Below, piece by piece: positions 39,429-64,000 of a stretch of 64,000 nt of DNA; position 1 is the first letter of the stretch, and each line of letters begins with the position of its first letter. The notes under the pieces were generated by a model. The model was not told the origin of the DNA. It saw nothing but the letters and a program-made list of their open reading frames with translations, and searched no databases. The stretch is from Rhodospirillales bacterium (lineage in GTDB: Bacteria; Pseudomonadota; Alphaproteobacteria; Rhodospirillales; UBA2165), in the NCBI GenBank assembly GCA_046582495.1, contig JAYGEG010000067.1:13666-77665 (forward strand), in the 5' to 3' direction. A program made the position numbers and the translations under genes.

Positions 39429-39601
39429 CGTCTCATCTCCCTTGGATCATATTCATTGATGCTTTTTGTGCAGTCTATGTCAGCCTGAATTCGCTGTCGA
39501 GAATTAATGATCAAGTGCTTACTTAGAGGTAGGTGTCTTGTTGTCTGTTGTTCAATTGTGTTTTATAAGGCCTTTCAGATAACAATGTAGGCTCGTTAAA
39601 A

Positions 39602-46100: not shown

Positions 46101-46210
46101 TGAGCAGGTCCTTATTTTTCATTATGAAGTCTTATATAAGAGTGTTTAGTCAGCGGCAGCGTTTATATCAACCCTTGATCTACAGAGGGGATACACTTTT
46201 CGATGAGATT

Positions 46211-53114: not shown

Positions 53115-53124
53115 GCTTAAAAGG

Positions 53125-53138
53125 TGATCAAATGATCA
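53125..53138 (+). promoter_or_regulatory. operator candidate TGATCAAATGATCA, site 1 (upstream of dctQ)
   Basis: Identical 14-mer to 57887-57900 and to the reverse complement of 63920-63933. It lies 124 nt upstream of the dctQ ATG. Confidence 0.6.
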
Positions 53139-53261
53139 TTAACGCTAGCAATATTGTGAAAACTCGTTAGAAATATAATCCTTGTTACTAATGGGATAGA
53201 TGTCTTATAGAAGACCACAGGAATAAAAATTAAAAAATACAGAGAGGTAATTGGGAGCTAC

Positions 53262-53813
53262 ATGTCTAGTGAATTACCGGCTTGGGAGGCTAAAATTGAG
53301 GGCGTCGCTGAGTCTTTTGCAAAAACGCTGAACATTATTTCAGGCGTTTGGTTGTCTTCAATCGCACTGTTAATTTTATATGATGTGATTGGCCGAGAAG
53401 CCTTTGGCATACCCTTCCACGGCACCAATGAGATTGTCTCCAATTCTGTGCTCTCCATTTTGATGCTCCAACTACCGTTAGCGATCTTGAACCGCAGCTC
53501 TTTAAGGACAACCATTCTCTACGGCAAATTGGGTCCTCGCGGCAAAAGCATCATTGAAGCTGTATCATACTTTTTTGCAGCCCTGCTATTTCTTGGTATT
53601 GGCTTTGGCGGCTGGGATAATATGATCGAGGCCTGGGACATTCTCGAACTTGAAGGATCCGGTGTTGTTGAAATTCCGGTTTATCCGATCCGCTCGTTGG
53701 TCGTCATCATTGGCTTCATCGGCTCATTTGTCTGCTCATTAATGGTCTATCACGCGCTAAAAAGACCGGAAGACTTTGCCGAGGAAGTTGCTGTTGAAGA
53801 AATGGGTGAATAA
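53262..53813 (+). CDS. dctQ: TRAP transporter small permease (DctQ family)
   Basis: 183 aa with 4 TM segments, directly upstream of dctM. Confidence 0.8.
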   Translation: MSSELPAWEAKIEGVAESFAKTLNIISGVWLSSIALLILYDVIGREAFGIPFHGTNEIVSNSVLSILMLQLPLAILNRSSLRTTILYGKLGPRGKSIIEAVSYFFAALLFLGIGFGGWDNMIEAWDILELEGSGVVEIPVYPIRSLVVIIGFIGSFVCSLMVYHALKRPEDFAEEVAVEEMGE

Positions 53814-53888
53814 CACCACTAAAAGAAATTAGGGGAGGAACAGCCGGCCATTTACTTTGACCTGATCGGGTGTCTTTAAAATAATCAC

Positions 53889-55226
53889 ATGGAATTTGAC
53901 CAAACTACAATCTTATTAGGCATGTTTGCCATTATGCTGACCGGCATATTGATTGGCATCCACATCGCCTTCGCCTTCGCGATTACCGCTCTCGTCGGCA
54001 ATATTCTGATTTTCGGTGATGGTGATTTACAAGAAGGGTTGGACATTGCTATCAACGGTCTTGGCAGTGTGGCCTATGAATATCTTCGCAGTGAAGTTTT
54101 TGCCGCCATTCCGCTGTTTATGCTGCTGGGTGACTTTGTCAATAAATCCGGCTCCGCCCGCGATCTCTATAAATTAATCAATCACTCGATGAAATTTATT
54201 CCGGGCCGCCTGGCCGTCGCGACAGTGGCTGGTAACACCGTCTTTGCCGCGGTGACAGGAGTTAGTATTGCCGCCGCCGCTGCCTTTAGCCGCATTGCCT
54301 ATCCACAAATGCGATTTCATGGCTATAACCGTCAGTTTGCCCTCGGCTCAGTTGCCGGTAGCGCCTGTCTCGGCATGATCATTCCGCCAAGTGTGTTGCT
54401 GATCGTTTGGGGCATTATTGCCGAGAAATCTATATCGCAGTTGTTCATCGCTGGTGCGATCCCGGGTTTGGTCTTGGCATCATTCTTTATGGTTTACATC
54501 ACCCTCTCCGTAACTCTTAAGCCAGAAATAGCACCAAAATTTGCAGAATCGGCAGAACAAAGTACGTTGACGGTACCCGAAATTTTCAGTGGCATCGGCA
54601 TTGGTCTGTTGATCGTATTGATTATGGGCGGCATTTGGGGCGGCTTGTTTACGCCTTCTGAAGCGGCTGGCGTTGGCGCAGCGGGTGCCATGGTGCTCGG
54701 TGTCTTAAAAGGCATGCGGGCAAAACAATTGGCCATCGCGATTGTCGATTCAGGTAAAACTGCTGCACCGATCATGTTCCTGCTTTTAACGGCAAATATG
54801 TATGCGAAGTTTATGGAAGCCGCTGGCATGTCCGAGCTGATCCGGAATACTTTTGAGCATTACAGCTTGGGCCCAACCGGCATTGTCGTTGTTATCATTT
54901 TAATCTGGTTGTTACTTGGCATGATTTTAGATTCGATCTCGATCATCTTGATCACCGTGCCGATTTTTGCTCCTTTGACGGAAGGTTTTTTCGACCCAAT
55001 TGCCTTTGCCATTTTCGGTATTCTAGTAATTGAGGCAGGCCTGTTGACCCCGCCCTTTGGACTGCTGGTTTATACGGTGAAGAGTTCGATTGACGATAAA
55101 CAGGCGACACTTTCTGAAATTTTCAAAGGCTCCATCCCCTATTGGATGCTCATGCTCGTTGTTATGTTGATGATATGGCGTTGGCCTGAAATCGCAACAT
55201 GGCTGCCCACCCTGATGTTGAGTTAG
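53889..55226 (+). CDS. dctM: TRAP transporter large permease (DctM family)
   Basis: 445-aa polytopic protein with DctM-like blocks. Confidence 0.9.
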   Translation: MEFDQTTILLGMFAIMLTGILIGIHIAFAFAITALVGNILIFGDGDLQEGLDIAINGLGSVAYEYLRSEVFAAIPLFMLLGDFVNKSGSARDLYKLINHSMKFIPGRLAVATVAGNTVFAAVTGVSIAAAAAFSRIAYPQMRFHGYNRQFALGSVAGSACLGMIIPPSVLLIVWGIIAEKSISQLFIAGAIPGLVLASFFMVYITLSVTLKPEIAPKFAESAEQSTLTVPEIFSGIGIGLLIVLIMGGIWGGLFTPSEAAGVGAAGAMVLGVLKGMRAKQLAIAIVDSGKTAAPIMFLLLTANMYAKFMEAAGMSELIRNTFEHYSLGPTGIVVVIILIWLLLGMILDSISIILITVPIFAPLTEGFFDPIAFAIFGILVIEAGLLTPPFGLLVYTVKSSIDDKQATLSEIFKGSIPYWMLMLVVMLMIWRWPEIATWLPTLMLS

Positions 55227-55333
55227 GGGCATATTTCACTATTCGAACACATTCCACGTCTATCCATTGATATTAAAAATTACCACGCTGACCCGCTGTG
55301 CTAGTGGATTTAGGGTCATAAACTTACTTTAAA

Positions 55334-56447
55334 TTGGTAGAATTTGAATTGAATACCATTATTAAAAAAGTCGGAATTCTTGGCGTATCGGTAGCGGTCG
55401 CTGCGATGGCTTTTGGATCAGTTGCAGAAGCAGCTTCCATAAAAGGCAATAAAATTACGATGCGCATTGGCTCTGGCCACCCGCCCTTCATCACTTATGT
55501 GAAAGGCGCGAGTAAGTCTTTTGTTCCAGCCGTAAAAAAACGTGTTGCCGCTGAAACAAAATACACCATCGATTTCAAAGAACACTATGCCGGTACCGTT
55601 GTTGGCGTATTTGATACCCTAGAAGGTGTACAGGACGGACGCCTCGACATTGGCGCATTTTGTGTTTGTTTTGACGATGACAAAGCGATGGCCATGAACT
55701 TGACCTACTATGTGCCTTTCCATGAGCCAAATGCGGTCAAAAACCAAAAAATATTTTTTAATCTGGTGAAAAAACATCCTTCACTCCAACAAGATTTTTC
55801 CAAGCGATACAAGCAAACGCTGATCGGTATCGGTGGTTTCAACAATTACGGCATGCTAAGCGCCTTTGACTGAAAAAAATTTGAAGATCTGAAAGGCCGC
55901 AAAATATTGGCGGCGGGACCCAACCTTTCGTGGGTTGTTGCCGGTATCCCTGTTCGTATGACCATTCCAAAATCTGCTCAACAAATGCAGACCGGTGTGG
56001 GCGAAGCGGTCATTTTGTTTCCAGACACTGATTTTAAATTGAAGCTTCATGAATCGATTAAAGGTGGCTACTACACGGTTACTGACTTTGGTGCTGTGGT
56101 TCAGATCAATTTGAACATGAACAATAAGACGCGTAAAAAATTGCCCCCAGAAGTCGTCAAAATTATTGACGAAGAAGGCGTTAAATACGGTGAAACGGTC
56201 GCTCAATGGTCTCAGAAAGACCATCAGTGGGGCCCGGATCAACTCGCCAAAGCAGGCACGAAAGTTCGCAACATTGATCCCGCCGCTAAAGTAGCGTGGG
56301 CGCAAAAATTGGCAGCCTGGCCAAACGAAAAAGCTCAAGCTGTTAAATCCAAAAAGAAAATCGACATGTCCTATGATCATGCGCGATTACATCAAAATGG
56401 TCGAAGCAGGCGGTCACAAATTTCCGATTAATTACGTTATTAAATAA
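55334..56447 (+). pseudogene. DctP-family TRAP solute-binding protein, inactivated paralogue of 56695..57792
   Basis: It is colinear with the downstream paralogue. There is an in-frame TGA at 55871-55873 where the paralogue has Trp (SAFD*KKFEDLKGRKILAAGPN). A frameshift near 56370-56378 precedes the conserved tail IMRDYIKMVEAGGHKFPINYVIK*. Confidence 0.8.
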
Positions 56448-56474
56448 TTAATCAGCAATTTTTTCGAACGCAGA

Positions 56475-56505
56475 GAGGCAACCTTAACCGGTTGCCTCTT
56501 TTTTT
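56475..56505 (+). terminator. intrinsic terminator after the dctP pseudogene
   Basis: GAGGCAACC-ttaacc-GGTTGCCTC followed by T7. Confidence 0.8.
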
Positions 56506-56694
56506 GTCTTTCACATAACCGCGAGCAACACGATATGCGCTGGTTTTTTCTTCCGTTGGACCATAATTTGTTTACCAATTGCATCAGAATCGTCTAAAGT
56601 AGTTCTTGTATGAACAACGGCTTAGCGCAAAATGACATGAGATCGTGATATTGGCCGTTTACTAATCACTAATATCCAAACAGGGAGTTTAACG

Positions 56695-57792
56695 ATGAGT
56701 AACGTACTATCTAAACTAAGCGTCATTGGCGCGGCTGCTGCCACCATTGTTGCCTTTAGTGCAACAACTCACGCAGCTTCGGTAAAAGGAAATAATATTA
56801 CGCTGCGAATTGGCTCAGGCCATCCACCGTTTATTACCTACGTGAAGGAAGTTTCGAAATACTTCGTCCCAAATGTGACAAAACGTGTCGCAGCGGAAAC
56901 CAAATATAAAATCACCTTCAAAGAGCATTATTCCGGCACCGTTGTGAACGTGTTTGATACGCTCGAAGGAACCCAAGACGGTCGCCTCGATATTGGCGCT
57001 TGGTGTGTTTGCTTTGATGACGATAAAGCCATGGCAATGAACCTTTCTTATTACGTGCCATTTGGTGAACCTAATGCCATTAAAGCAACCGCCACATTCG
57101 GCAAATTAATTCAGCAGCATCCAGACATTCAAAAAGACTATGAAAAACGCTATAAACAGAAGCTGTTGGCAGTTACTGGCTTTAACAACTATGGCCTGCT
57201 CAGTGCCTTTGATTGGAAAAAATTTGAAGACCTAAAAGGTCGTAAAATCTTAGCCGCTGGACCGAACCTTCCATGGGTGAGCGCTGGCATTCCAGTTCGT
57301 ACGACGATTCCGAAGGCTGCTCAGCAGTTACAAACAGGTGTTGGCGAAGCTATCGTGCTTTTCCCGGACACTGATTTTAAATTGAAATTGCATGAAGCCA
57401 TCGGCAAAGGCGGATTTTATACGATCACCGACTTTGGTGCAGTTGTGCAAATTTCTCTGACGATGAATTTGCGGTCGCGTAAAAAACTGCCGCCTGAAGT
57501 CGTTAAAATCATTGATGAAGAAGCAATGAAATACCAAACGCATTCTTCACAGACCTCTCAGAACGATCATCAATGGGGTCTCGATAAATTGGCAGGCGCA
57601 GGCATCACAGTTCGTAAGATTGATCCCGCCGCTAAAATTGCCTGGGCAAAAAGTTTGGCTGCATGGCCAAATTCACGGGCCCAAGCCGTATCGAAAAAGA
57701 AGAATATCGATATGGGTAAAATCATGCGCGCCTTCATGGACGCCACACGAGCCGGTGGGCACAAATTCCCGGTTGATTATGTGATTAAATAG
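56695..57792 (+). CDS. dctP: DctP-family TRAP solute-binding protein (intact copy)
   Basis: Signal peptide ...AFSATTHA, 365 aa. RIGSGHPPFITYVK...LEGTQDGRLDIG blocks. GGGAG RBS. Confidence 0.8.
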   Translation: MSNVLSKLSVIGAAAATIVAFSATTHAASVKGNNITLRIGSGHPPFITYVKEVSKYFVPNVTKRVAAETKYKITFKEHYSGTVVNVFDTLEGTQDGRLDIGAWCVCFDDDKAMAMNLSYYVPFGEPNAIKATATFGKLIQQHPDIQKDYEKRYKQKLLAVTGFNNYGLLSAFDWKKFEDLKGRKILAAGPNLPWVSAGIPVRTTIPKAAQQLQTGVGEAIVLFPDTDFKLKLHEAIGKGGFYTITDFGAVVQISLTMNLRSRKKLPPEVVKIIDEEAMKYQTHSSQTSQNDHQWGLDKLAGAGITVRKIDPAAKIAWAKSLAAWPNSRAQAVSKKKNIDMGKIMRAFMDATRAGGHKFPVDYVIK

Positions 57793-57816
57793 TCAAATCG
57801 GCGTTTGAAAACGAGA

Positions 57817-57848
57817 GAGGCAGCCTCAAAAGGCTGCCTCTTTTTTTT
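57817..57848 (+). terminator. intrinsic terminator after dctP
   Basis: GAGGCAGCC-tcaaaa-GGCTGCCTC followed by T8. It has the same architecture as the terminator at 56475. Confidence 0.8.
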
Positions 57849-57886
57849 AATGCATTCACACATTTTAATGTGTAATATAAAGTTAT

Positions 57887-57900
57887 TGATCAAATGATCA
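57887..57900 (+). promoter_or_regulatory. operator candidate TGATCAAATGATCA, site 2 (upstream of the cupin gene)
   Basis: Identical 14-mer, 37 nt upstream of the ATG at 57937. Confidence 0.6.
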
Positions 57901-57936
57901 TTAGTTTTTTTCACTCAGCTATTTTGAAAGTTAAAA

Positions 57937-58458
57937 ATGACCGTCACACCCGAAGATATGAAGAAACGCACCGCACGTTTCAAAGACTTGAGCTATAGCA
58001 CGCAAGGCTATCTAGATACCCGTATCCCGGCACATGAACGTAATACCTACAATGTTATTGGACGCGGTGTAACGGAAGACCCCAAGCTGGCACCTGCCAT
58101 TACCGATGCACCTAACTTTAACCTTACCTATATTGGAGCTGATCCTGGCAAAGGGGCAGCCCTTCATGATCATCCAACTGTCGAAGTCTTTATTCCGATG
58201 ACGGGTCAATGGACCTTCCTTTGGGGAGAAAATGGCGAACACGAAATACTCATCGATCAATTTGATGTCATTTCGGTTCCTCCCGGCGTGATGCGGGGCT
58301 TTCGCAATGAAAGTGATGAGCATAGCTTTATCATGGCCATTTTGGGAGGCACGGATTCTGGTAGCGTATCTTGGGCAAGCAATGTCATAGATGAAGCCGA
58401 AAAAACCGGCCTGAGACTCAATGAAGATGGAACCATCAGCGAAATAGAACCGGCTTAA
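57937..58458 (+). CDS. cupin domain protein
   Basis: GAALHDHPTVEVFIPMTGQWTF...VPPGVMRGFRN (cupin motifs 1 and 2). Confidence 0.75.
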   Translation: MTVTPEDMKKRTARFKDLSYSTQGYLDTRIPAHERNTYNVIGRGVTEDPKLAPAITDAPNFNLTYIGADPGKGAALHDHPTVEVFIPMTGQWTFLWGENGEHEILIDQFDVISVPPGVMRGFRNESDEHSFIMAILGGTDSGSVSWASNVIDEAEKTGLRLNEDGTISEIEPA

Positions 58459-58469
58459 AGAGAAGAACA

Positions 58470-58880
58470 ATGCCCCTTGAAAAAATTGATCACTATGCCA
58501 TTCGCACTTTGAAAATGGACGAAACCAAAGAGTTCTATGAGGCCCTTGGTCTTTATGCGGGACCGCGCCCTGAATTTCCGTTTCCAGGCCATTGGATGTA
58601 TGCGGGCGACACGCCGGTGGTTCATCTTGTTGGCATTGATCCTGAAAATCCAGAAGGGTTGTATGGTTATCTTGGAGTGAAAAATGTTAAATTTCTGGAT
58701 GGCGGCGGCGCCATTGACCATCTCGCCTTCAGTGCGTCCGACCCCAGCGGCTTAAAAAAAATATTGGAAGAGCGCGGCGTCAACTACCGGGAACGCGAAG
58801 TGCCGGATATGGGACTTTTACAAATATTTGCCGAAGACCCTAATGACATCACCGTTGAGATAAATTACTACGACCAGTGA
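58470..58880 (+). CDS. VOC (glyoxalase / extradiol dioxygenase) family protein
   Basis: IDHYAIRT...IDHLAFSA...EINYY, the paired beta-alpha-beta-beta-beta module pattern. Confidence 0.75.
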   Translation: MPLEKIDHYAIRTLKMDETKEFYEALGLYAGPRPEFPFPGHWMYAGDTPVVHLVGIDPENPEGLYGYLGVKNVKFLDGGGAIDHLAFSASDPSGLKKILEERGVNYREREVPDMGLLQIFAEDPNDITVEINYYDQ

Positions 58881-58887
58881 GAAGGCC

Positions 58888-60096
58888 ATGGCTGACGGTG
58901 CAATCGAAAACCTAGATCAAAAAACCCGTCCCAGCCGCGCTGAAATGCTGGAACGTGCTGAGGCTCTGGTTCCAGCGCTCAAAGATCGCGCCCTTGAGAC
59001 CGAGCAACTCGGCAAGGTTCATCCAGATACGATTAAAGCTCTCCATAATACCGGCCTGTTTCGCATCAATCAGCCCGCGCGCGTGGGCGGCGGCGACTAT
59101 GACTATCGCCTGCTCATGGAAGTGACTTCAATATTGGGCAAAGGCTGTGGCTCGACGGCGTGGGTTTATATCAATCTCGCCTGTCACCATTGGATGCTCG
59201 GCATGTGGCCAGCCAAGGCCCAGGATGAACTATGGGATGAGAACATTGACGTTTTAATAGCGTCCTCAGTCATTTATCCCACTGGCCGCGCGACCAAGGT
59301 CAAAGGCGGCTACCAACTTTCCGGACGCTGGCCGTTTTGCAGCGGTGTTGATTGGTCCGATTACGTGATGCTTGGCGGCACTGTTTATGACGACAAAGAT
59401 GAAATCCTCGACAGACGGGTGTTTATTGTCTCAAAACAAGATCTAACCGTGCATGACAATTGGGATGTATCGGGTCTTTGCGGTACCGGCAGTAAAGACA
59501 GTGAAGCCAAGGACGTCTTTATCCCGGAGCACATGACTCTCGCCGGCCATGATATGCAAAACTGCAAAACGCCTGGCTCTGGCGTAAACCCTGCGCCGCT
59601 TTTCAATTTGCCGCAGGCAGCGCTTTTTCCGCATATTATCGCAGCACCTATTATTGGCATGGCAGAAGGCGCCTATGATCATTTTGTCGATGCCAATAAA
59701 GTCGCTAAATCTACCTACAACACCTCGCGCATTGCAGAGTATCAGGCGATCCAAACCAAAGCAGCCACAGCTGCAGCTGCAGTAGAGGTCGCCAAAACCA
59801 TGATCAACGCCAATTGCGATGAAGCGACCGCGACGCTCACCAGAGGCGATATTTGCAGCGAAGAGCAAAAGCATCGCTGGCGACGGGATGCTGCGTATGC
59901 CGCCAATCTTTGCTTTGATGCAATTGAAGGGCTCTATAAGGCCACAGGCGGTAGAGGCGCTTATAAGAGCAATCCAATCCAGCGGCACTACCGAGATGCC
60001 AGTGTTGGCATTACCCATATCAGCATGTCCTGGGATGTCATGGGCGCGGAATATGGCCGCTATGTTCTAGGCCTTGGCGGCAATCCTTCGATTTAA
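58888..60096 (+). CDS. acyl-CoA-dehydrogenase-fold flavin-dependent monooxygenase (group D, HsaA / HpaH-C2-like oxygenase component)
   Basis: 402 aa with ACAD-like N, middle and C domains (WPFCSGVDWSDY, WDVSGLCGTGSKD). Confidence 0.7.
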   Translation: MADGAIENLDQKTRPSRAEMLERAEALVPALKDRALETEQLGKVHPDTIKALHNTGLFRINQPARVGGGDYDYRLLMEVTSILGKGCGSTAWVYINLACHHWMLGMWPAKAQDELWDENIDVLIASSVIYPTGRATKVKGGYQLSGRWPFCSGVDWSDYVMLGGTVYDDKDEILDRRVFIVSKQDLTVHDNWDVSGLCGTGSKDSEAKDVFIPEHMTLAGHDMQNCKTPGSGVNPAPLFNLPQAALFPHIIAAPIIGMAEGAYDHFVDANKVAKSTYNTSRIAEYQAIQTKAATAAAAVEVAKTMINANCDEATATLTRGDICSEEQKHRWRRDAAYAANLCFDAIEGLYKATGGRGAYKSNPIQRHYRDASVGITHISMSWDVMGAEYGRYVLGLGGNPSI

Positions 60097-62474
60097 ATCT
60101 TCCCAAGTGCCTGGAGGATGCGTTCGGGCGTAAACGGCTGCACGGTGACTTTGGCATTTAACGGATGGAGCGCATCATTGATGGCGTTCATCACAACGGC
60201 TGGTGCCCCGCCGGTGCCAGCCTCGCCAGCGCCTTTAGCACCAAGTTCAGAATCGAGCGTCGGGCTTTCAATATGACCGACTTCGATATCAGGCATTTCC
60301 GCCGCCATCGGCACAAGGTAGTCCGCCATCGTGCCGTTCAAGATCTGGCCTTCCGGGCTATAGAGGCATTCTTCATAAAGTGCACCGCCAAGCCCTTGGA
60401 TGACACCGCCCCGTACCTGCTCATCAACCAGCTGCGGATTAATTACCGTGCCGCAATCTTCAACCACACAATATTTTTTGAACTCAATGAAGCCAGTGTT
60501 GGTATCAACTTCGATATAACAACCCTGAACGCCGTTGGTGAAAGCAAAGGGAAATTGCTTCGGCACGTAGTGACGCGTCACCACGAGCTCAGACTGATAG
60601 TCCTTTGGCAACGTATCCGGGCGGTAGTAACAAACCCGCCCGACTTCGGCGAGGGTCATGCGTTCCGTTCCATCTGCAATATCAACGATATTGTTGTCTC
60701 GGATATCAAGCGTGGTCGGATCGCTTTGCAGCATGATACCTGCAACTTCGACAATGTTCTGACGCAGTGCTTTACCGGCTTGTACGGCAGCCTCGCCGCC
60801 GATACCAGCCGCACGGGACCCCCAGGTACCGCCGCCGTAAGGTGTGATGTCTGTATCACCAGAGATGACTTTAATTTTATCCATCGTGACGCCAAGCGCG
60901 GTCGCCGCACATTGGGCGACAACAGCTTCCGCGCCTTGGCCCTGCTCGGTGACACCAATTTCGACAATGACATTGCCTTTGGCATCAAGTCGCATGGTTG
61001 CGCCGTCCTGCGCTGAAATCGGCGCACCGCCGACGCCATAGAAAGCGGGCCCTGGATTGGTCACCTCAATAAAAGTTGCAAGACCAATACCCCGGTAGAT
61101 GCCTTGCTCGCGTGCTGCCGCCTGATCTTTGCGTAATCCATCATAATCCATCATTTTTACCAGCTTTTCCAAACTCGCTTGATGGGAAAGATTTTCAAAC
61201 GGCATGCCAGAAGCCGATTTATGAGGATAGGCATCGTCGGGAACTAAATTTTTACGGCGGATTTCGAGCGGATCCATCCCGATAGCCCGTGCGGCATCAT
61301 CGACAATTCCTTCGGTGATCAACGTCAAAATAGGATGCCCGACAGCGCGGTATTGGCACATCGGAGATTTGTTTTGATAGACCACCGTCGCCTGCGCCCG
61401 GTAATTTTCGTGTTGATATTGCCCGCCGGTTAGATTGACGACTTGGTTGGCCTCAATCCCGCTGGTCCGCGGATAAACCGAATACGGTCCAATACCGGTG
61501 AGATCGTCGATTTCCATGGCTTGGATTATGCCGTCATTGGAAACAGCGATTTTAGTCGTAATTCGGTGATCACGCGCATGAATATCACTGGTGAAAGATT
61601 CCAGGCGATCAGCAATAAACTTCACGGGACGCTTCAACATATAAGCCAGAGCAACCGTCGCGTATTCATCCGGATAAGAATGTACTTTAATACCGAAGGA
61701 GCCGCCGACATCTTTACAAATCACGCGGACTTTGTGTTCCTCGATATCAAGGTGTTTGGCAAACAGGCTCTGCATCATGTGCGGCGCCTGAGTTGAGTGA
61801 TAGATCGTCAGCTGATCTTCGCCGGGATTATAATCTGCCAAGATGGCCCGCGTTTCCAAACACACACCCGTGTGGCGATTGGAGATATAGGTCTCTTCAA
61901 TGACGTGGTCCGCATTGGCAAAAGCTGCGTCAACATCGCCGACATCAAGATTTCGGCGCCAAGCCAAATTATCACCAAGGTCGGGATGGATGACCGGCGT
62001 ATCGTCTTCGAGTGCGGTTTCCATATCGGTGACGACCGGCAGTTCCTTCCACTCGATATCAATAAGCTCAATTGCATCTTCTGCCTGAGCGCGGGTATGT
62101 GCGACAACGGCAACCACGGGTTCTCCCTGCCAGGATGCTTTTTTTACTGCCAACGCATGTTGCGGAGCTGATTTCAGGCCTTCCAAATGGCTCAGCACGC
62201 CAACCCAAGGCGCGCAGACTTCTGCCATTTCCACGCCGGCAACAACTGCAACGACGCCGTCGCTTTCTTTGGCTGCACTGGCGTCGATTGAAACAATCTC
62301 CGCATGAGCGAAATGCGAGCGCAGAAACGCAACATGGGTCATGCGCGGCAGTTTTATATCGTCGGTAAAAGTGCCTCGCCCGCTCAGCAATCGCTTGGCG
62401 TTTGGCCGCGGGACTGAGCGTCCTATATAGCTATTGGGGCGATCGAGGATGTGGTCCTTAATCATATCAGCCAT
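60093..62474 (-). CDS. molybdopterin-binding large subunit of a xanthine dehydrogenase/CoxL-family hydroxylase
   Basis: 793 aa with aldehyde oxidase/xanthine dehydrogenase a/b-hammerhead and Mo-binding blocks. The active-site loop reads MCQYRAVGHP, not the AYRCSFR of form I CODH. Confidence 0.9.
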   Translation of the reverse strand: MADMIKDHILDRPNSYIGRSVPRPNAKRLLSGRGTFTDDIKLPRMTHVAFLRSHFAHAEIVSIDASAAKESDGVVAVVAGVEMAEVCAPWVGVLSHLEGLKSAPQHALAVKKASWQGEPVVAVVAHTRAQAEDAIELIDIEWKELPVVTDMETALEDDTPVIHPDLGDNLAWRRNLDVGDVDAAFANADHVIEETYISNRHTGVCLETRAILADYNPGEDQLTIYHSTQAPHMMQSLFAKHLDIEEHKVRVICKDVGGSFGIKVHSYPDEYATVALAYMLKRPVKFIADRLESFTSDIHARDHRITTKIAVSNDGIIQAMEIDDLTGIGPYSVYPRTSGIEANQVVNLTGGQYQHENYRAQATVVYQNKSPMCQYRAVGHPILTLITEGIVDDAARAIGMDPLEIRRKNLVPDDAYPHKSASGMPFENLSHQASLEKLVKMMDYDGLRKDQAAAREQGIYRGIGLATFIEVTNPGPAFYGVGGAPISAQDGATMRLDAKGNVIVEIGVTEQGQGAEAVVAQCAATALGVTMDKIKVISGDTDITPYGGGTWGSRAAGIGGEAAVQAGKALRQNIVEVAGIMLQSDPTTLDIRDNNIVDIADGTERMTLAEVGRVCYYRPDTLPKDYQSELVVTRHYVPKQFPFAFTNGVQGCYIEVDTNTGFIEFKKYCVVEDCGTVINPQLVDEQVRGGVIQGLGGALYEECLYSPEGQILNGTMADYLVPMAAEMPDIEVGHIESPTLDSELGAKGAGEAGTGGAPAVVMNAINDALHPLNAKVTVQPFTPERILQALGKI

Positions 62475-62477
62475 CGG

Positions 62478-62966
62478 TTACGCTCCCTTTCTTGTGTTTG
62501 CGACGGTCTCTATCGCATCGACAATCGCTTCATAGCCGGTACAGCGGCAATAGTTTCCAGATAAATATTCGCGGATTTCTTGCCGGCTGGGATCAGGATT
62601 TTTCTCTAACATTTCGGTTATCGCCATCAACATGCCTGGCGTGCAGAACCCACACTGAAGGGCATTGCGTTCATGAAACGCTTTTTGGAGATCAGCTATT
62701 TCACCGCTGTCGTCAGAGCCTTCGATGGTGACCACCTCTAATCCGTCCGCTTGGATCGCCAGCATCAAGCAGCCACGGACAATTTCACCATCGATGCGGA
62801 CGGTACAGGCGCCGCAAACGCCGTGCTCACATCCGACATGAGTGCCGGTGAGCTCCATTTGATTGCGTAAAAAATCGACAAGATTTGTGCGAGGCTCGAC
62901 CAAAGCCGTGACTTTTTCACCGTTCACAGTCGTTGTCACTTGGATTTGTTCTATTTGATTTGTCAT
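62478..62966 (-). CDS. [2Fe-2S]-binding small subunit of the Mo hydroxylase
   Basis: CEHGVCGACTV and CGFCTPGM cluster motifs. The start was trimmed to MTNQ, which has a GGGGGG RBS. Confidence 0.9.
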   Translation of the reverse strand: MTNQIEQIQVTTTVNGEKVTALVEPRTNLVDFLRNQMELTGTHVGCEHGVCGACTVRIDGEIVRGCLMLAIQADGLEVVTIEGSDDSGEIADLQKAFHERNALQCGFCTPGMLMAITEMLEKNPDPSRQEIREYLSGNYCRCTGYEAIVDAIETVANTRKGA

Positions 62967-62970
62967 GTAA

Positions 62971-63828
62971 TTACCCCCCACTCAGCGTGGTAAGCACGCG
63001 CTTGGTCAATTCTTTGGCGTAGTGCATTTTAAGCGCTGCTGAACTATGGAGATCATCAAACGGCGACAAATCCTGCTCCAAGGCATTTTGCGCAGCCGCA
63101 ATACTGGCATCATCCACCGATTGGCCTTCCATTGCATTCATTGCCTTTTTCGCGGTAACGGGTGTCGAGCCAACGGCAAAGAAAACCAGCCGTAAGTCAG
63201 ATAATTTGCCGCCGTCGACTTTTGCATGAGCAGCAACCCCGGCCATGGCATAATCACCGTGGCGACGGGCCAATTCATCAAAGGCTGAGCGATAGCCGGC
63301 GCCTAATTTAGGAATTTCGACGGCCGTTAATATTTCGCCTTCGGCCATATCCGTTTCATACAAGTCTTTGAAAAAGTCCTTGGCTGCAACTTTGCGCGCG
63401 CCGCTCTTGCCGGTAACTTCCACTTCTCCGTCCAGCGCACAGAGACAAGCCGGCAATTCGGCCGCCGGGTCCGCCATTGCAATACTGCCGCCAAAAGTAC
63501 CGCGATTTCGGATCGCGGGATGAGCGATATACGGCATCGCCATAGAAATAAGCGGCGCGTGCTCTGCAATTCCAGGGGAGTTCTCAATTTCCGTGTGGCG
63601 TGTCAGGGCGCCAATTCTTAGATTTTCACCATCAACGGAAATACCGCTCAAATCGGACAAGCCATTGATATCTATGACCAATGCTGGTGCGGATAGACGC
63701 ATATTCAAGGTTGGCATCAGACTTTGGCCGCCGGCCAAAATTGTCGCCTCATCGCCATATTCGCTCAGCAGACCAAGGACTTCATCAACAGATGAAGGCT
63801 TGGCATAATTAAATGCCGATGGTTTCAA
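62971..63828 (-). CDS. FAD-binding medium subunit of the Mo hydroxylase (CoxM-like)
   Basis: ILAGGQSLMP and RNRGTFGGS motifs. A TTG start is inferred from the AGGGAGG RBS 5 nt upstream. Confidence 0.85.
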   Translation of the reverse strand: MKPSAFNYAKPSSVDEVLGLLSEYGDEATILAGGQSLMPTLNMRLSAPALVIDINGLSDLSGISVDGENLRIGALTRHTEIENSPGIAEHAPLISMAMPYIAHPAIRNRGTFGGSIAMADPAAELPACLCALDGEVEVTGKSGARKVAAKDFFKDLYETDMAEGEILTAVEIPKLGAGYRSAFDELARRHGDYAMAGVAAHAKVDGGKLSDLRLVFFAVGSTPVTAKKAMNAMEGQSVDDASIAAAQNALEQDLSPFDDLHSSAALKMHYAKELTKRVLTTLSGG

Positions 63829-63919
63829 TTGAACCTCCCTAATTTTTTTTCGTTCAGGAGCCACTTGGGTGACTTCATTTTTTAAAGAATACTAGGCAAA
63901 TTAAGTTATTATTATTATA

Positions 63920-63973
63920 GTGATCATTTGATCAATAAGAGATTGATACTACGCCCCATTCGAATTCTGTCAA
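63920..63973 (-). promoter_or_regulatory. putative Mo-hydroxylase operon promoter plus operator site 3
   Basis: On the minus strand: TTGACA (63973-63968), a 17-nt spacer, TAGTAT (63950-63945), then TGATCAAATGATCA (63933-63920) about 12 nt downstream of the -10. Confidence 0.55.
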
Positions 63974-64000
63974 TGGGTCCGATACTGAAATTATTGAGCC

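Follow-up and report, generated by a model that had tools for sequence, protein, structure and literature searches.

NicR2 of Pseudomonas putida S16 is reported to be a TetR-family repressor of nicotine degradation that binds inverted repeats in the promoters Phsp and Pspm of the nicotine cluster, where it competes with RNA polymerase until the pathway intermediate HSP releases it (PMC6550519). An Arg-x-Arg arm that enters the minor groove, together with a 22-bp operator of the LuxR type, is described in the literature as unique to the quorum-sensing master regulators of Vibrio. Here we analyse a stretch of 64,000 nucleotides from a Rhodospirillales bacterium (assembly GCA_046582495.1, contig JAYGEG010000067.1, positions 13,666 to 77,665), hereafter called the window, in which a 14-bp motif, TGATCAAATGATCA, precedes three operons encoding a tripartite ATP-independent periplasmic (TRAP) transporter, a cupin-VOC-oxygenase set and a molybdenum (Mo) hydroxylase. 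As judged from sequence, this motif is very probably the core of a palindromic operator of about 22 bp, with the consensus cTTATTGATCA-ww-TGATCAct, for a dimeric TetR-family repressor, and a gene for such a protein begins just beyond the end of the window.

The operon that NicR2 controls from Pspm encodes a molybdenum hydroxylase, and NicS with nicAB in P. putida KT2440 and XdhR in Streptomyces are similar cases. The Qor genes for quinoline 2-oxidoreductase lie in the order M-S-L, and qor is controlled by an activator of the XylS type, not by a TetR protein. Our literature search returned nothing relevant on a TetR operator of the TGATCA type, nor on a TetR protein associated with xanthine-dehydrogenase-family and TRAP genes.

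An inverted repeat recurs in three intergenic regions

A sequence search of the window found three exact matches to the motif, at 53125-53138 (+), 57887-57900 (+) and 63921-63934 (-), all of them intergenic. They are separated by 123 nt from the ATG of dctQ (53262), by 36 nt from the ATG of the cupin gene (57937) and by 92 nt from the likeliest start of the coxM-like gene, which is most likely the TTG at 63828, with AGGGAGG just 5′ of it. A preliminary description of the window had reported the same three sites, and its distances to these three genes hold, as do its first two pairs of coordinates; the third copy, which it had put at 63920-63933, is the one that moves.

Matches with at most two mismatches number 8 in the window, against a mean of 0.97 in 100 dinucleotide shuffles; further ones, at 2548 and 34919, lie within open reading frames. 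In the whole genome (3.35 Mb in 216 contigs, 49% G+C, with the window at C207:13666-77665), the exact 14-mer occurs four times, namely the three intergenic copies, which lie within 10.8 kb of each other and have an identical centre, and one copy at C215:1049-1062, which is inside a DctP-like coding frame and in frame codes for NDQMII. The hexamer TGATCA is itself over-represented 2.24-fold (1890 copies), the chance expectation for TGATCA-N2-TGATCA is 1.07 pairs per genome against the four found, and pairs at other spacings number 0-4. The copy on C215 is probably the expected chance pair, and since it sits in a coding frame we rejected it as a member of the regulon. The earlier estimate was that the motif should occur far less than once per 64 kb by chance. 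The number of 14-mers is not by itself what makes the motif significant; more telling are that three intergenic copies fall within 10.8 kb and have identical centres and, most of all, that relatives conserve them.

The three window copies resemble one another for only about 4 nt to either side of the motif (about 22 bp overall), which speaks against an origin as parts of a dispersed repeat such as a repetitive extragenic palindromic (REP) element or a miniature inverted-repeat transposable element (MITE). The preliminary description had allowed for a dispersed repeat lying mostly outside promoters; what the genome-wide search gave instead is four exact copies, three of them in promoter regions.

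TGATCA is its own reverse complement. Moreover, the central dinucleotide differs among orthologous sites (AA, TT, AC, CT, AT and GA), and from one genome to another it can point either way with respect to the genes. The element is therefore an inverted repeat without conserved polarity, and the earlier reading of the copies as sharing one orientation, and as a direct repeat with 8-bp periodicity, loses its meaning. The sites carry TTAT on one flank only, and show one strong half (TTATTGATCA) and one weaker half. We call the three predicted operators O1 (63917-63938, core 63921-63934, minus strand, reading TTATTGATCAAATGATCACTAT), O2 (57883-57904, core 57887-57900, plus strand, TTATTGATCAAATGATCATTAG) and O3 (53121-53142, core 53125-53138, assigned to the minus strand). 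O1 lies in the control region shared by the Mo-hydroxylase operon (-) and the TetR gene (+), O2 ahead of the cupin-VOC-oxygenase operon and O3 upstream of dctQ. O3 directly follows a G+C-rich inverted repeat with a run of T, which we read as the putative terminator of the DUF1330 gene.

Two further observations concern these counts. The 2-kb contig with the fourth copy (C215:1-2029, L002) carries a DctP-like gene beside a second Mo-hydroxylase large-subunit fragment, a pairing that echoes the main cluster. Short palindromes are strongly skewed in the genome relative to expectation (CTAG 0.18, GTAC 0.29, GANTC 0.42, GATC 1.47, TGATCA 2.24), and the skew of palindromic tetranucleotides may reflect restriction-modification or CcrM-type pressure.

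A divergent TetR-family gene adjoins the best site

The contig runs 12.6 kb beyond the window (L001). Its continuation holds a TetR-family gene (217 amino acids, P0001) on the plus strand, which starts 51 nt past the window end, with its ATG at window-equivalent position 64051, and ends at 64704 (L001:717-1370); the window itself contains only the start of the tetR leader (63935-64000, (+)). The coxM-like gene and the rest of the Mo-hydroxylase operon are transcribed away from it, O1 is inside the 222-bp region between the two, and TctCBA transporter genes follow the TetR gene. Hence the apparent lack of a visible regulator, remarked on in the preliminary description, was an artefact of where the window ends, and its suggestion to look beyond 64000 for a divergently transcribed regulator led to this gene. 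Its statement that no transcription factor gene lies in 52-64 kb agrees with our own result: when most of the larger frames between 36.7 and 64 kb were scanned against Pfam, no transcription-factor domain was found.

The start of the TetR gene was chosen by agreement with orthologues of 216 amino acids. The public gene call (243 amino acids, P0002; L001:639, window 63973 onward) begins at an ATG that overlaps the -35 element of the Mo-hydroxylase operon, and the residues that it adds at the N terminus are not conserved; judging from the orthologues, and from an intergenic alignment with a non-coding pattern, the real start is 26 codons later, at 64051. The N-terminal helix-turn-helix domain TetR_N (PF00440) matches residues 63-108 of the long frame with 46.3 bits (cut-off 24). 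An AlphaFold2 model based on 60 homologues (mean predicted local distance difference test score, pLDDT, 89.4) has an all-helical TetR fold of 10 helices. In a Foldseek search this model gave 75 PDB matches with E<=0.001, and the best 50 listed are all of the TetR family, with HapR and SmcR first, followed by PhlH, FadR, CecR and NicR2.

A search of PDB sequences found no close solved relative of the protein. Its best matches there, and its sole NCBIfam match, are of the HapR/OpaR/SmcR/LuxR type; the similarity is weak (about 21% identity; E 8e-12 for residues 7-177), and with 32.2 bits against a cut-off of 350 for NF040929, the HapR equivalog, the protein is not a member of that group. In the LuxR-DNA complex, Ser49, Ala51, Phe54 and Asn55 contact bases, Arg17, Arg32, Arg36, Thr52, Tyr56, Pro58, Thr59 and Arg60 contact the backbone, and Arg9 and Arg11 of the N-terminal arm reach into the minor groove at the outer TTAT (PMC8034623). 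According to a HMMER alignment, the present protein retains Arg10 and Arg12 (equivalent to LuxR Arg9 and Arg11), Arg18 (for LuxR Arg17), Ser49, Phe54, Tyr56, Pro58 and Thr59, with Lys60 in place of Arg60. It differs at Ala51, which is Ser, Thr52, which is Leu, Asn55, which is Arg, and the two loop arginines, Arg32 and Arg36. Arg10 and Arg12, in the motif R-x-R-L-S, are invariant in 14 homologues and nearly so in 60. Across these 60 homologues, which go down to 48% identity, there is little or no variation in the R-x-R-L motif and in helix 3. This compatibility with LuxR-like protein-DNA contacts is circumstantial but independent of the argument from genomic context.

Predicted operator positions are kept in related genomes

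The closer of the relatives that we compared are uncultured marine Rhodospirillaceae metagenome-assembled genomes (MAGs; the present genome is G000). Orthologues of the TetR protein with 70-89% identity occur in six relatives (G003, G005, G006, G007, G008 and G013), and weaker relatives in G038 (53%) and G028 (44%). The neighbourhood is largely syntenic in G003, G005, G006, G007 and G013. It comprises genes for GST, DUF1330, dctQ, dctM, dctP, in some genomes the cupin, VOC and in some the HsaA-like oxygenase, then on the opposite strand the Mo-hydroxylase L, S and M subunits, and then TetR. TctCBA genes come after the TetR gene wherever the fetched DNA reaches, except in G006. In G008, where the contig starts within the gene for the Mo large subunit, the visible part of the cluster is Mo/TetR/Tct.

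In the Mo/TetR region, TGATCA-N2-TGATCA is exact in G005, G007 and G008, and the site reads TGATCAAACGATCA in G003 and TGATCACTTGATCA in G013. The site upstream of the VOC or cupin gene is exact in G013, has one mismatch in G003 and G007, and two in G005. Upstream of dctQ, there is a perfect palindrome, TGATCAATTGATCA, in G006 and a site with one mismatch in G003 and G007, while no recognisable site (at most three mismatches) was found in the dctQ upstream regions of G005 and G013. When the three intergenic regions were aligned with MAFFT, identity came to 94%, 91% and 86% over the 14 operator columns and to 56%, 58% and 64% over all other columns. The O1 core has 11 of 14 columns invariant in six genomes, compared to 41 of 257 elsewhere in the intergenic alignment, and the O2 core has 10 of 14; O3 is the least conserved of the three. 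Genomes of the family without a TetR orthologue (G001, G002, G009 and G012) have 0-1 sites, which is about chance level, and the sole copy in G002 is inside an open frame.

We also derived a weight matrix of 22 bp (maximum 36.4 bits) for which 15 sites from relatives, and no sequence of G000, were used. When applied to G000, this matrix ranked the three window sites first to third, with O1 as the best match in the genome (35.4 bits), followed by O3 (31.2 bits) and O2 (30.4 bits).

Promoter geometry and a predicted mechanism

Promoters were assigned by matches to consensus hexamers and are thus predictions. The Mo-hydroxylase operon has a predicted sigma-70 promoter at 63946-63973 (-), with TTGACA (63973-63968) and TAGTAT (63951-63946) separated by 16 nt (10 of 12 matches). 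The preliminary description had named the same hexamers with a spacer of 17; the spacer needs this correction, and its placement of the site in a repressor-like position stands, as the O1 core starts 11 nt downstream of the -10 element, at about +5 to +18. The sequence GTCAATGG, complementary to the -35 region, does not vary among six genomes, and most of the -10 region is kept as well. In the other direction, the predicted tetR promoter (63893-63921, (+)) is TAGGCA-17-TATAGT (9 of 12 matches), and the final base of its -10 element is the first base of the O1 core. Four of six genomes keep the TAGGCA block, which is TGGGCA in G005 and TATGCA in G013; the relatives have TAAAGT as the -10 element. 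Because O1 abuts the tetR -10 element and sits downstream of the -10 element of the Mo-hydroxylase operon, one bound dimer could block both promoters, and tetR would be autoregulated.

For the cupin-VOC-monooxygenase operon, the predicted promoter is TTCACA-17-TAAAGT (57855-57883, (+)), with a better-conserved alternative -10 element, TAATAT, at 57873-57878. O2 begins 3-8 nt past the -10 element and spans the predicted transcription start with either choice. Around O3, the promoter scan found no plus-strand promoter. The likely -10 element of dctQ is TATAAT at 53174-53179, the sole plausible candidate and a reading rather than a scan match, which would put O3 at about -62 to -49, roughly 50-60 nt upstream of the start site.

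These positions suggest the following mechanism. Without inducer, the repressor on O1 would cover the first transcribed stretch of the Mo-hydroxylase operon as well as the start site of its own promoter, and on O2 it would cover the start site of the cupin-VOC-flavin-monooxygenase operon; it would also occupy O3 upstream of the TRAP genes, a weaker operator (O4, below) and a site before a HisD-like dehydrogenase gene on another contig. Helix 3 would lie in the major groove over TGATC and the Arg10-x-Arg12 arm in the AT-rich minor groove of the TTAT flank, as in LuxR and HapR. The pathway substrate or an early intermediate might then bind in the C-terminal pocket and cause release from DNA, so that uptake and degradation would be turned on together. 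We infer the binding of the TetR protein to the sites, the repression and the nature of the inducer from what the genomes hold: the sites with their genome specificity and conservation, the adjacent TetR gene and the promoter-like hexamers.

Which protein binds the operator, and how

In all likelihood, the adjacent TetR protein is what binds the motif, because its gene is a neighbour, O1 lies in the shared control region, the protein co-occurs with the sites, and the phylogenetic footprint, the matrix ranking, the promoter positions and the LuxR-like contacts point the same way. If it does, simple repression that is relieved by a ligand is the probable mode of action. Several observations weigh against this view of the locus. 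Two phosphate-contact residues of LuxR (Arg32 and Arg36) and two base-contact residues (Ala51 and Asn55) are not kept in the protein. G006 keeps an orthologue (70%), yet no site could be recognised there between the Mo and TetR genes, and the distant orthologous loci L051 (66%), L052 (55%) and L053 (56%) contain no match to the pattern or the matrix, though helix 3 is nearly invariant there; in G038 (53%), only a diverged TTATCGTTTGATTA is found at the equivalent place. At such distant loci, either the operator has diverged or the assignment is imperfect. A site like the one before a second TctC gene in G000 is also present in G001, which lacks a TetR orthologue. Finally, the apparent location of O3 is not a classic repression position, and O3 is degenerate or lost in two relatives (G013 and G005).

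The site missing beside the TetR gene of G006, the distant loci without the motif and the G001 site, in a genome with only a 41% paralogue, would fit a real operator that is bound by a different factor encoded elsewhere, such as a TetR paralogue or a member of another family, with the adjacent protein recognising something else. Paralogue loci also carry related TGAnCA-N2-TGTTCA sequences. We nonetheless regard this alternative as unlikely. No transcription-factor gene other than that for TetR was found in the conserved cluster, the best-conserved site lies in the divergent promoter region of the TetR gene in six of seven genomes, genomes without an orthologue have sites only at chance level, and the architecture of the operator is that of the protein's nearest characterised relatives.

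These same relatives both activate and repress (PMC8034623), so the protein might be a dual regulator of the LuxR/HapR kind that represses at O1 and O2 and activates from O3, upstream of the dctQ -35 region, perhaps without needing a small-molecule inducer. The predicted distance of O3 from the dctQ promoter would suit activation, and the pairing of a strong half with a weaker one is as in LuxR activation sites. However, the protein is far from the HapR equivalog in both score and identity, O3 is the site with the least conservation, the dctQ promoter is a reading and not a scan match, and TetR repressors that a ligand releases, NicR2 among them (PMC6550519), typically have a divergent catabolic context of this kind. 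Dual regulation therefore seems improbable here, and ligand-released repression by the adjacent TetR protein remains our preferred reading.

That the copies have no regulatory role, being chance pairs of hexamers, remnants of small repeats, GATC clusters for a methylation or SeqA-type system, or RNA hairpins in 5′ leaders, is highly improbable: TGATCA and GATC are over-represented (2.2-fold and 1.5-fold), about one chance pair is expected per genome at any spacing and one copy is coding, but the three clustered intergenic copies share a centre, keep their positions across 6-7 genomes while the flanking DNA diverges, and lose similarity some 4 nt out, unlike REP or MITE copies. The RNA-hairpin reading was rejected because the motif is upstream of one promoter and at the starts of others, occurs in both polarities and has a 2-nt loop that cannot form a hairpin; the Dam/GATC reading was rejected along with the other non-regulatory ones.

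The predicted regulon extends beyond three operons

After the three window sites, the next match to the matrix in G000 is at C46:25347-25368 (26.9 bits), 35 nt before a gene of the histidinol-dehydrogenase family (HisD-like), which is divergent from an SDR-MFS gene pair. This site is recognisable at the same position in five of six genomes, exact in G003 and G013 and with two mismatches in G007 and G008; in G005 only a remnant is left. The fifth-best site in the genome is a weaker variant, the predicted operator O4 (39504-39525, (+), TTAATGATCAAGTGCTTACTTA, 25.9 bits). O4 lies within a 173-bp region between a cyclase/cyclase/BKACE operon (-) and a divergent amidase-HIBADH-deacetylase operon (+), and the pattern ctgtcgag..TTAATGATCAnnTGCT(T/C)ACT is at the same position in G003, G007, G008 and G013, and probably in G006. 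Some relatives have extra sites at genes for a LivK-type ABC transporter (one in G013, two in tandem in G008) and an acyl-CoA dehydrogenase (one in G003).

The predicted regulon in G000 therefore spans at least 36.7-64.7 kb and one distant locus. The proposal of the preliminary description, that a shared cis-site ties the TRAP, VOC/monooxygenase and Mo-hydroxylase operons together, is supported by the conserved positions in syntenic relatives, but the three operons are only a part of what appears to be controlled. Two further intergenic sites with one mismatch, on C148 before a second TctCBA operon and on C96 beside a frame judged from its sequence to be LexA-like, were left ambiguous as members; the C148 type is the one that also occurs in G001, which has no orthologue.

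The predicted target genes and pathway

The TRAP operon (53262-57792, (+)) comprises dctQ (53262-53813), dctM (53889-55226), a DctP-like frame (55334-56431) and an intact dctP (56695-57792), with matches to the Pfam families DctQ, DctM and DctP. Of these two, the DctP-like frame nearer the promoter has an interruption between 55873 and 55907. At the same place, G003 has two DctP-like copies, both of which are uninterrupted, full-length matches.

The cupin-VOC-oxygenase operon (57937-60096, (+)) encodes a cupin (57937-58458), a single-domain protein of the VOC/glyoxalase fold (58470-58880) and an HsaA-like oxygenase (58888-60096). The last of these is the oxygenase component of a two-component flavin monooxygenase, of the HsaA/C2-HpaH-like kind, and its best solved relative is the oxygenase of 3-HSA hydroxylase (2rfq, 4e-68). 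A sequence search found no solved relative of the VOC protein. Around position 4350 of contig C131, a GntR-type palindrome separates a DctP gene from a divergently transcribed gene for a flavin reductase (PF01613); this reductase is a candidate partner of the HsaA-like oxygenase, whose cluster has no reductase gene.

The Mo-hydroxylase operon (60093-63828, (-)) has the order M-S-L, with genes for the FAD subunit (62971-63828), the 2Fe-2S subunit (62478-62981) and the molybdopterin subunit (60093-62474). Among solved relatives of the large subunit, quinoline 2-oxidoreductase (1t3q_B, 2e-137) is the best, and others are mycobacterial CoxL and 6-hydroxypseudooxynicotine dehydrogenase (7dqx, 4e-103). 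Neither of the CO-dehydrogenase loops AYRCSFR (form I) and AYRGAGR (form II) was found in the large subunit, and the NCBIfam models of CO dehydrogenase gave 471-501 bits, below their cut-offs of 950-991. Quinoline 2-oxidoreductase as the best solved relative lends some support to the earlier guess that the substrate is an N-heterocycle.

The composition of the cluster varies among relatives. The cupin gene was found only in the clusters of G000 and G003; the HsaA-like oxygenase was not found in those of G005 and G006, and none was called in L051, a Joint Genome Institute (JGI) contig whose TetR protein has 66% identity. The G003 cluster (L044) has an extra FAD aromatic-ring hydroxylase, and in G013 (L037) a LivK-type ABC transporter with its own operator variant is inserted between the oxygenase and Mo genes. 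The constant core is the VOC gene, present in all relatives, with the three Mo-hydroxylase genes. The linkage persists in a Rhodospirillales MAG whose TetR protein has 55% identity: the Mo-hydroxylase M, S and L genes are divergent from the TetR gene, which is followed by genes for VOC, two HsaA-like proteins and a cyclase.

Other enzymes of the predicted regulon are an amidase, two cyclase-type amidohydrolases, a BKACE protein and the HisD-like dehydrogenase, of a type that converts alcohols to acids; its transporters, and those of the cluster, are of the TRAP, tripartite tricarboxylate (TTT) and LivK types. Taken together, these annotations suggest that the pathway probably degrades a carboxylated N-heteroaromatic compound, or possibly a phenolic one. 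The Mo enzyme would hydroxylate next to the nitrogen, and a second hydroxylation, ring cleavage and amide hydrolysis would follow.

A second palindrome in the TRAP leader

The dctQ leader contains a second palindrome, GTCTTATAGAAGAC (53202-53215), between the likely -10 element (53174-53179) and the dctQ start, and a 21-nt block over it is invariant in four genomes. Palindromes of the form GTCTTATA(N)AAGAC have 12 sites in the genome with at most one mismatch, 11 of which are intergenic. These include 53202-53215 and 46129-46142 in the window, L001:1469-1482 between the tetR stop and tctC, and sites on contigs C100, C125, C131 and C140. Most precede genes for transporter binding proteins (dctQ, an orphan DctP, two TctC and another DctP) and dehydrogenases, and one is in the divergent promoter region of a GntR+UTRA (HutC-type) gene on C125. 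The second palindrome is probably the operator of a regulator of the GntR/HutC type, with the C125 gene as the likely cognate, and the TRAP operon seems to be under dual control by the TetR protein and a GntR-type protein.

Comparison with known systems

This analysis turns an orphan motif into a concrete predicted pair of regulator and operator, with a delimited regulon, in an abundant lineage of uncultured marine Rhodospirillaceae. The predicted regulon joins enzymes without assigned substrates into one pathway, is the most useful handle for finding the substrate, and would make the TetR protein and its operator usable as a biosensor once the ligand is known. A wider and more speculative possibility, which we hold only tentatively, is that an alphaproteobacterial TetR subfamily (more than 1000 homologues, widespread in marine metagenomes) with a LuxR-type arm and operator is the local, probably ligand-responsive switch of a supercluster of about 27 kb and at least five promoters for the degradation of an N-heteroaromatic acid. 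Such a supercluster would define a new marine pathway together with a ready-made biosensor pair. Should the protein activate as well, from asymmetric sites like O3, it would represent a catabolic counterpart of LuxR and HapR and possibly an evolutionary precursor type.

Regarding its enzymes, the locus resembles the quinoline 2-oxidoreductase system QorMSL of P. putida 86, which provides the best solved relative of the large subunit and shares the M-S-L gene order. The pathways differ in that the Qor pathway uses a Rieske oxygenase, whereas an HsaA-like flavin monooxygenase and a small VOC protein are encoded here.

The regulator and its operator most resemble LuxR, HapR, SmcR and OpaR, which are the best characterised matches of the protein in both sequence and structure, and whose R-x-R-L-S arm and most helix-3 and backbone contacts are kept. 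The published 22-bp motifs are TTATTGATAAATTTATCAATAA for LuxR and TTATTGATWWRWTWNTNAATAA for SmcR. The present operator has the same register and centre, and the same outer half-sites, TTATTGAT and ATCAATAA; with both flanks idealised, it equals the SmcR consensus at 20 of 22 positions. The differences are at positions 9 and 14, which are C and G here and A and T in LuxR-type operators. Compared to the 9-4-9 operator of the LuxR type, TTATTGATA-N4-TATCAATAA, the register and the TTATTGAT half-site are the same, these two positions are different, and conservation is confined to one flank. The biological setting is also different: these proteins have a global quorum-sensing role in Vibrionaceae, whereas the present one is found in an alphaproteobacterial host with a local catabolic cluster and a few further loci, without a quorum-sensing context.

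The mechanism proposed here is a textbook one, and the only mild surprise is an architecture of LuxR-type arm and operator outside Vibrionaceae. With respect to function, NicR2 is the closest described case found in our literature search. What the two systems share, as a prediction for the present locus, is a single TetR-family repressor whose inverted repeats lie in several promoters of a cluster for N-heterocycle catabolism. NicR2 (5fgl) is also among the structural neighbours of our model, a likeness at the level of the fold only (about 18% identity, Foldseek E 3e-4). The operator sequence, the organism, the enzymes and probably the substrate differ, and at least 5-6 target promoters are predicted in the present system, which is thus an uncharacterised case of a well-known kind.

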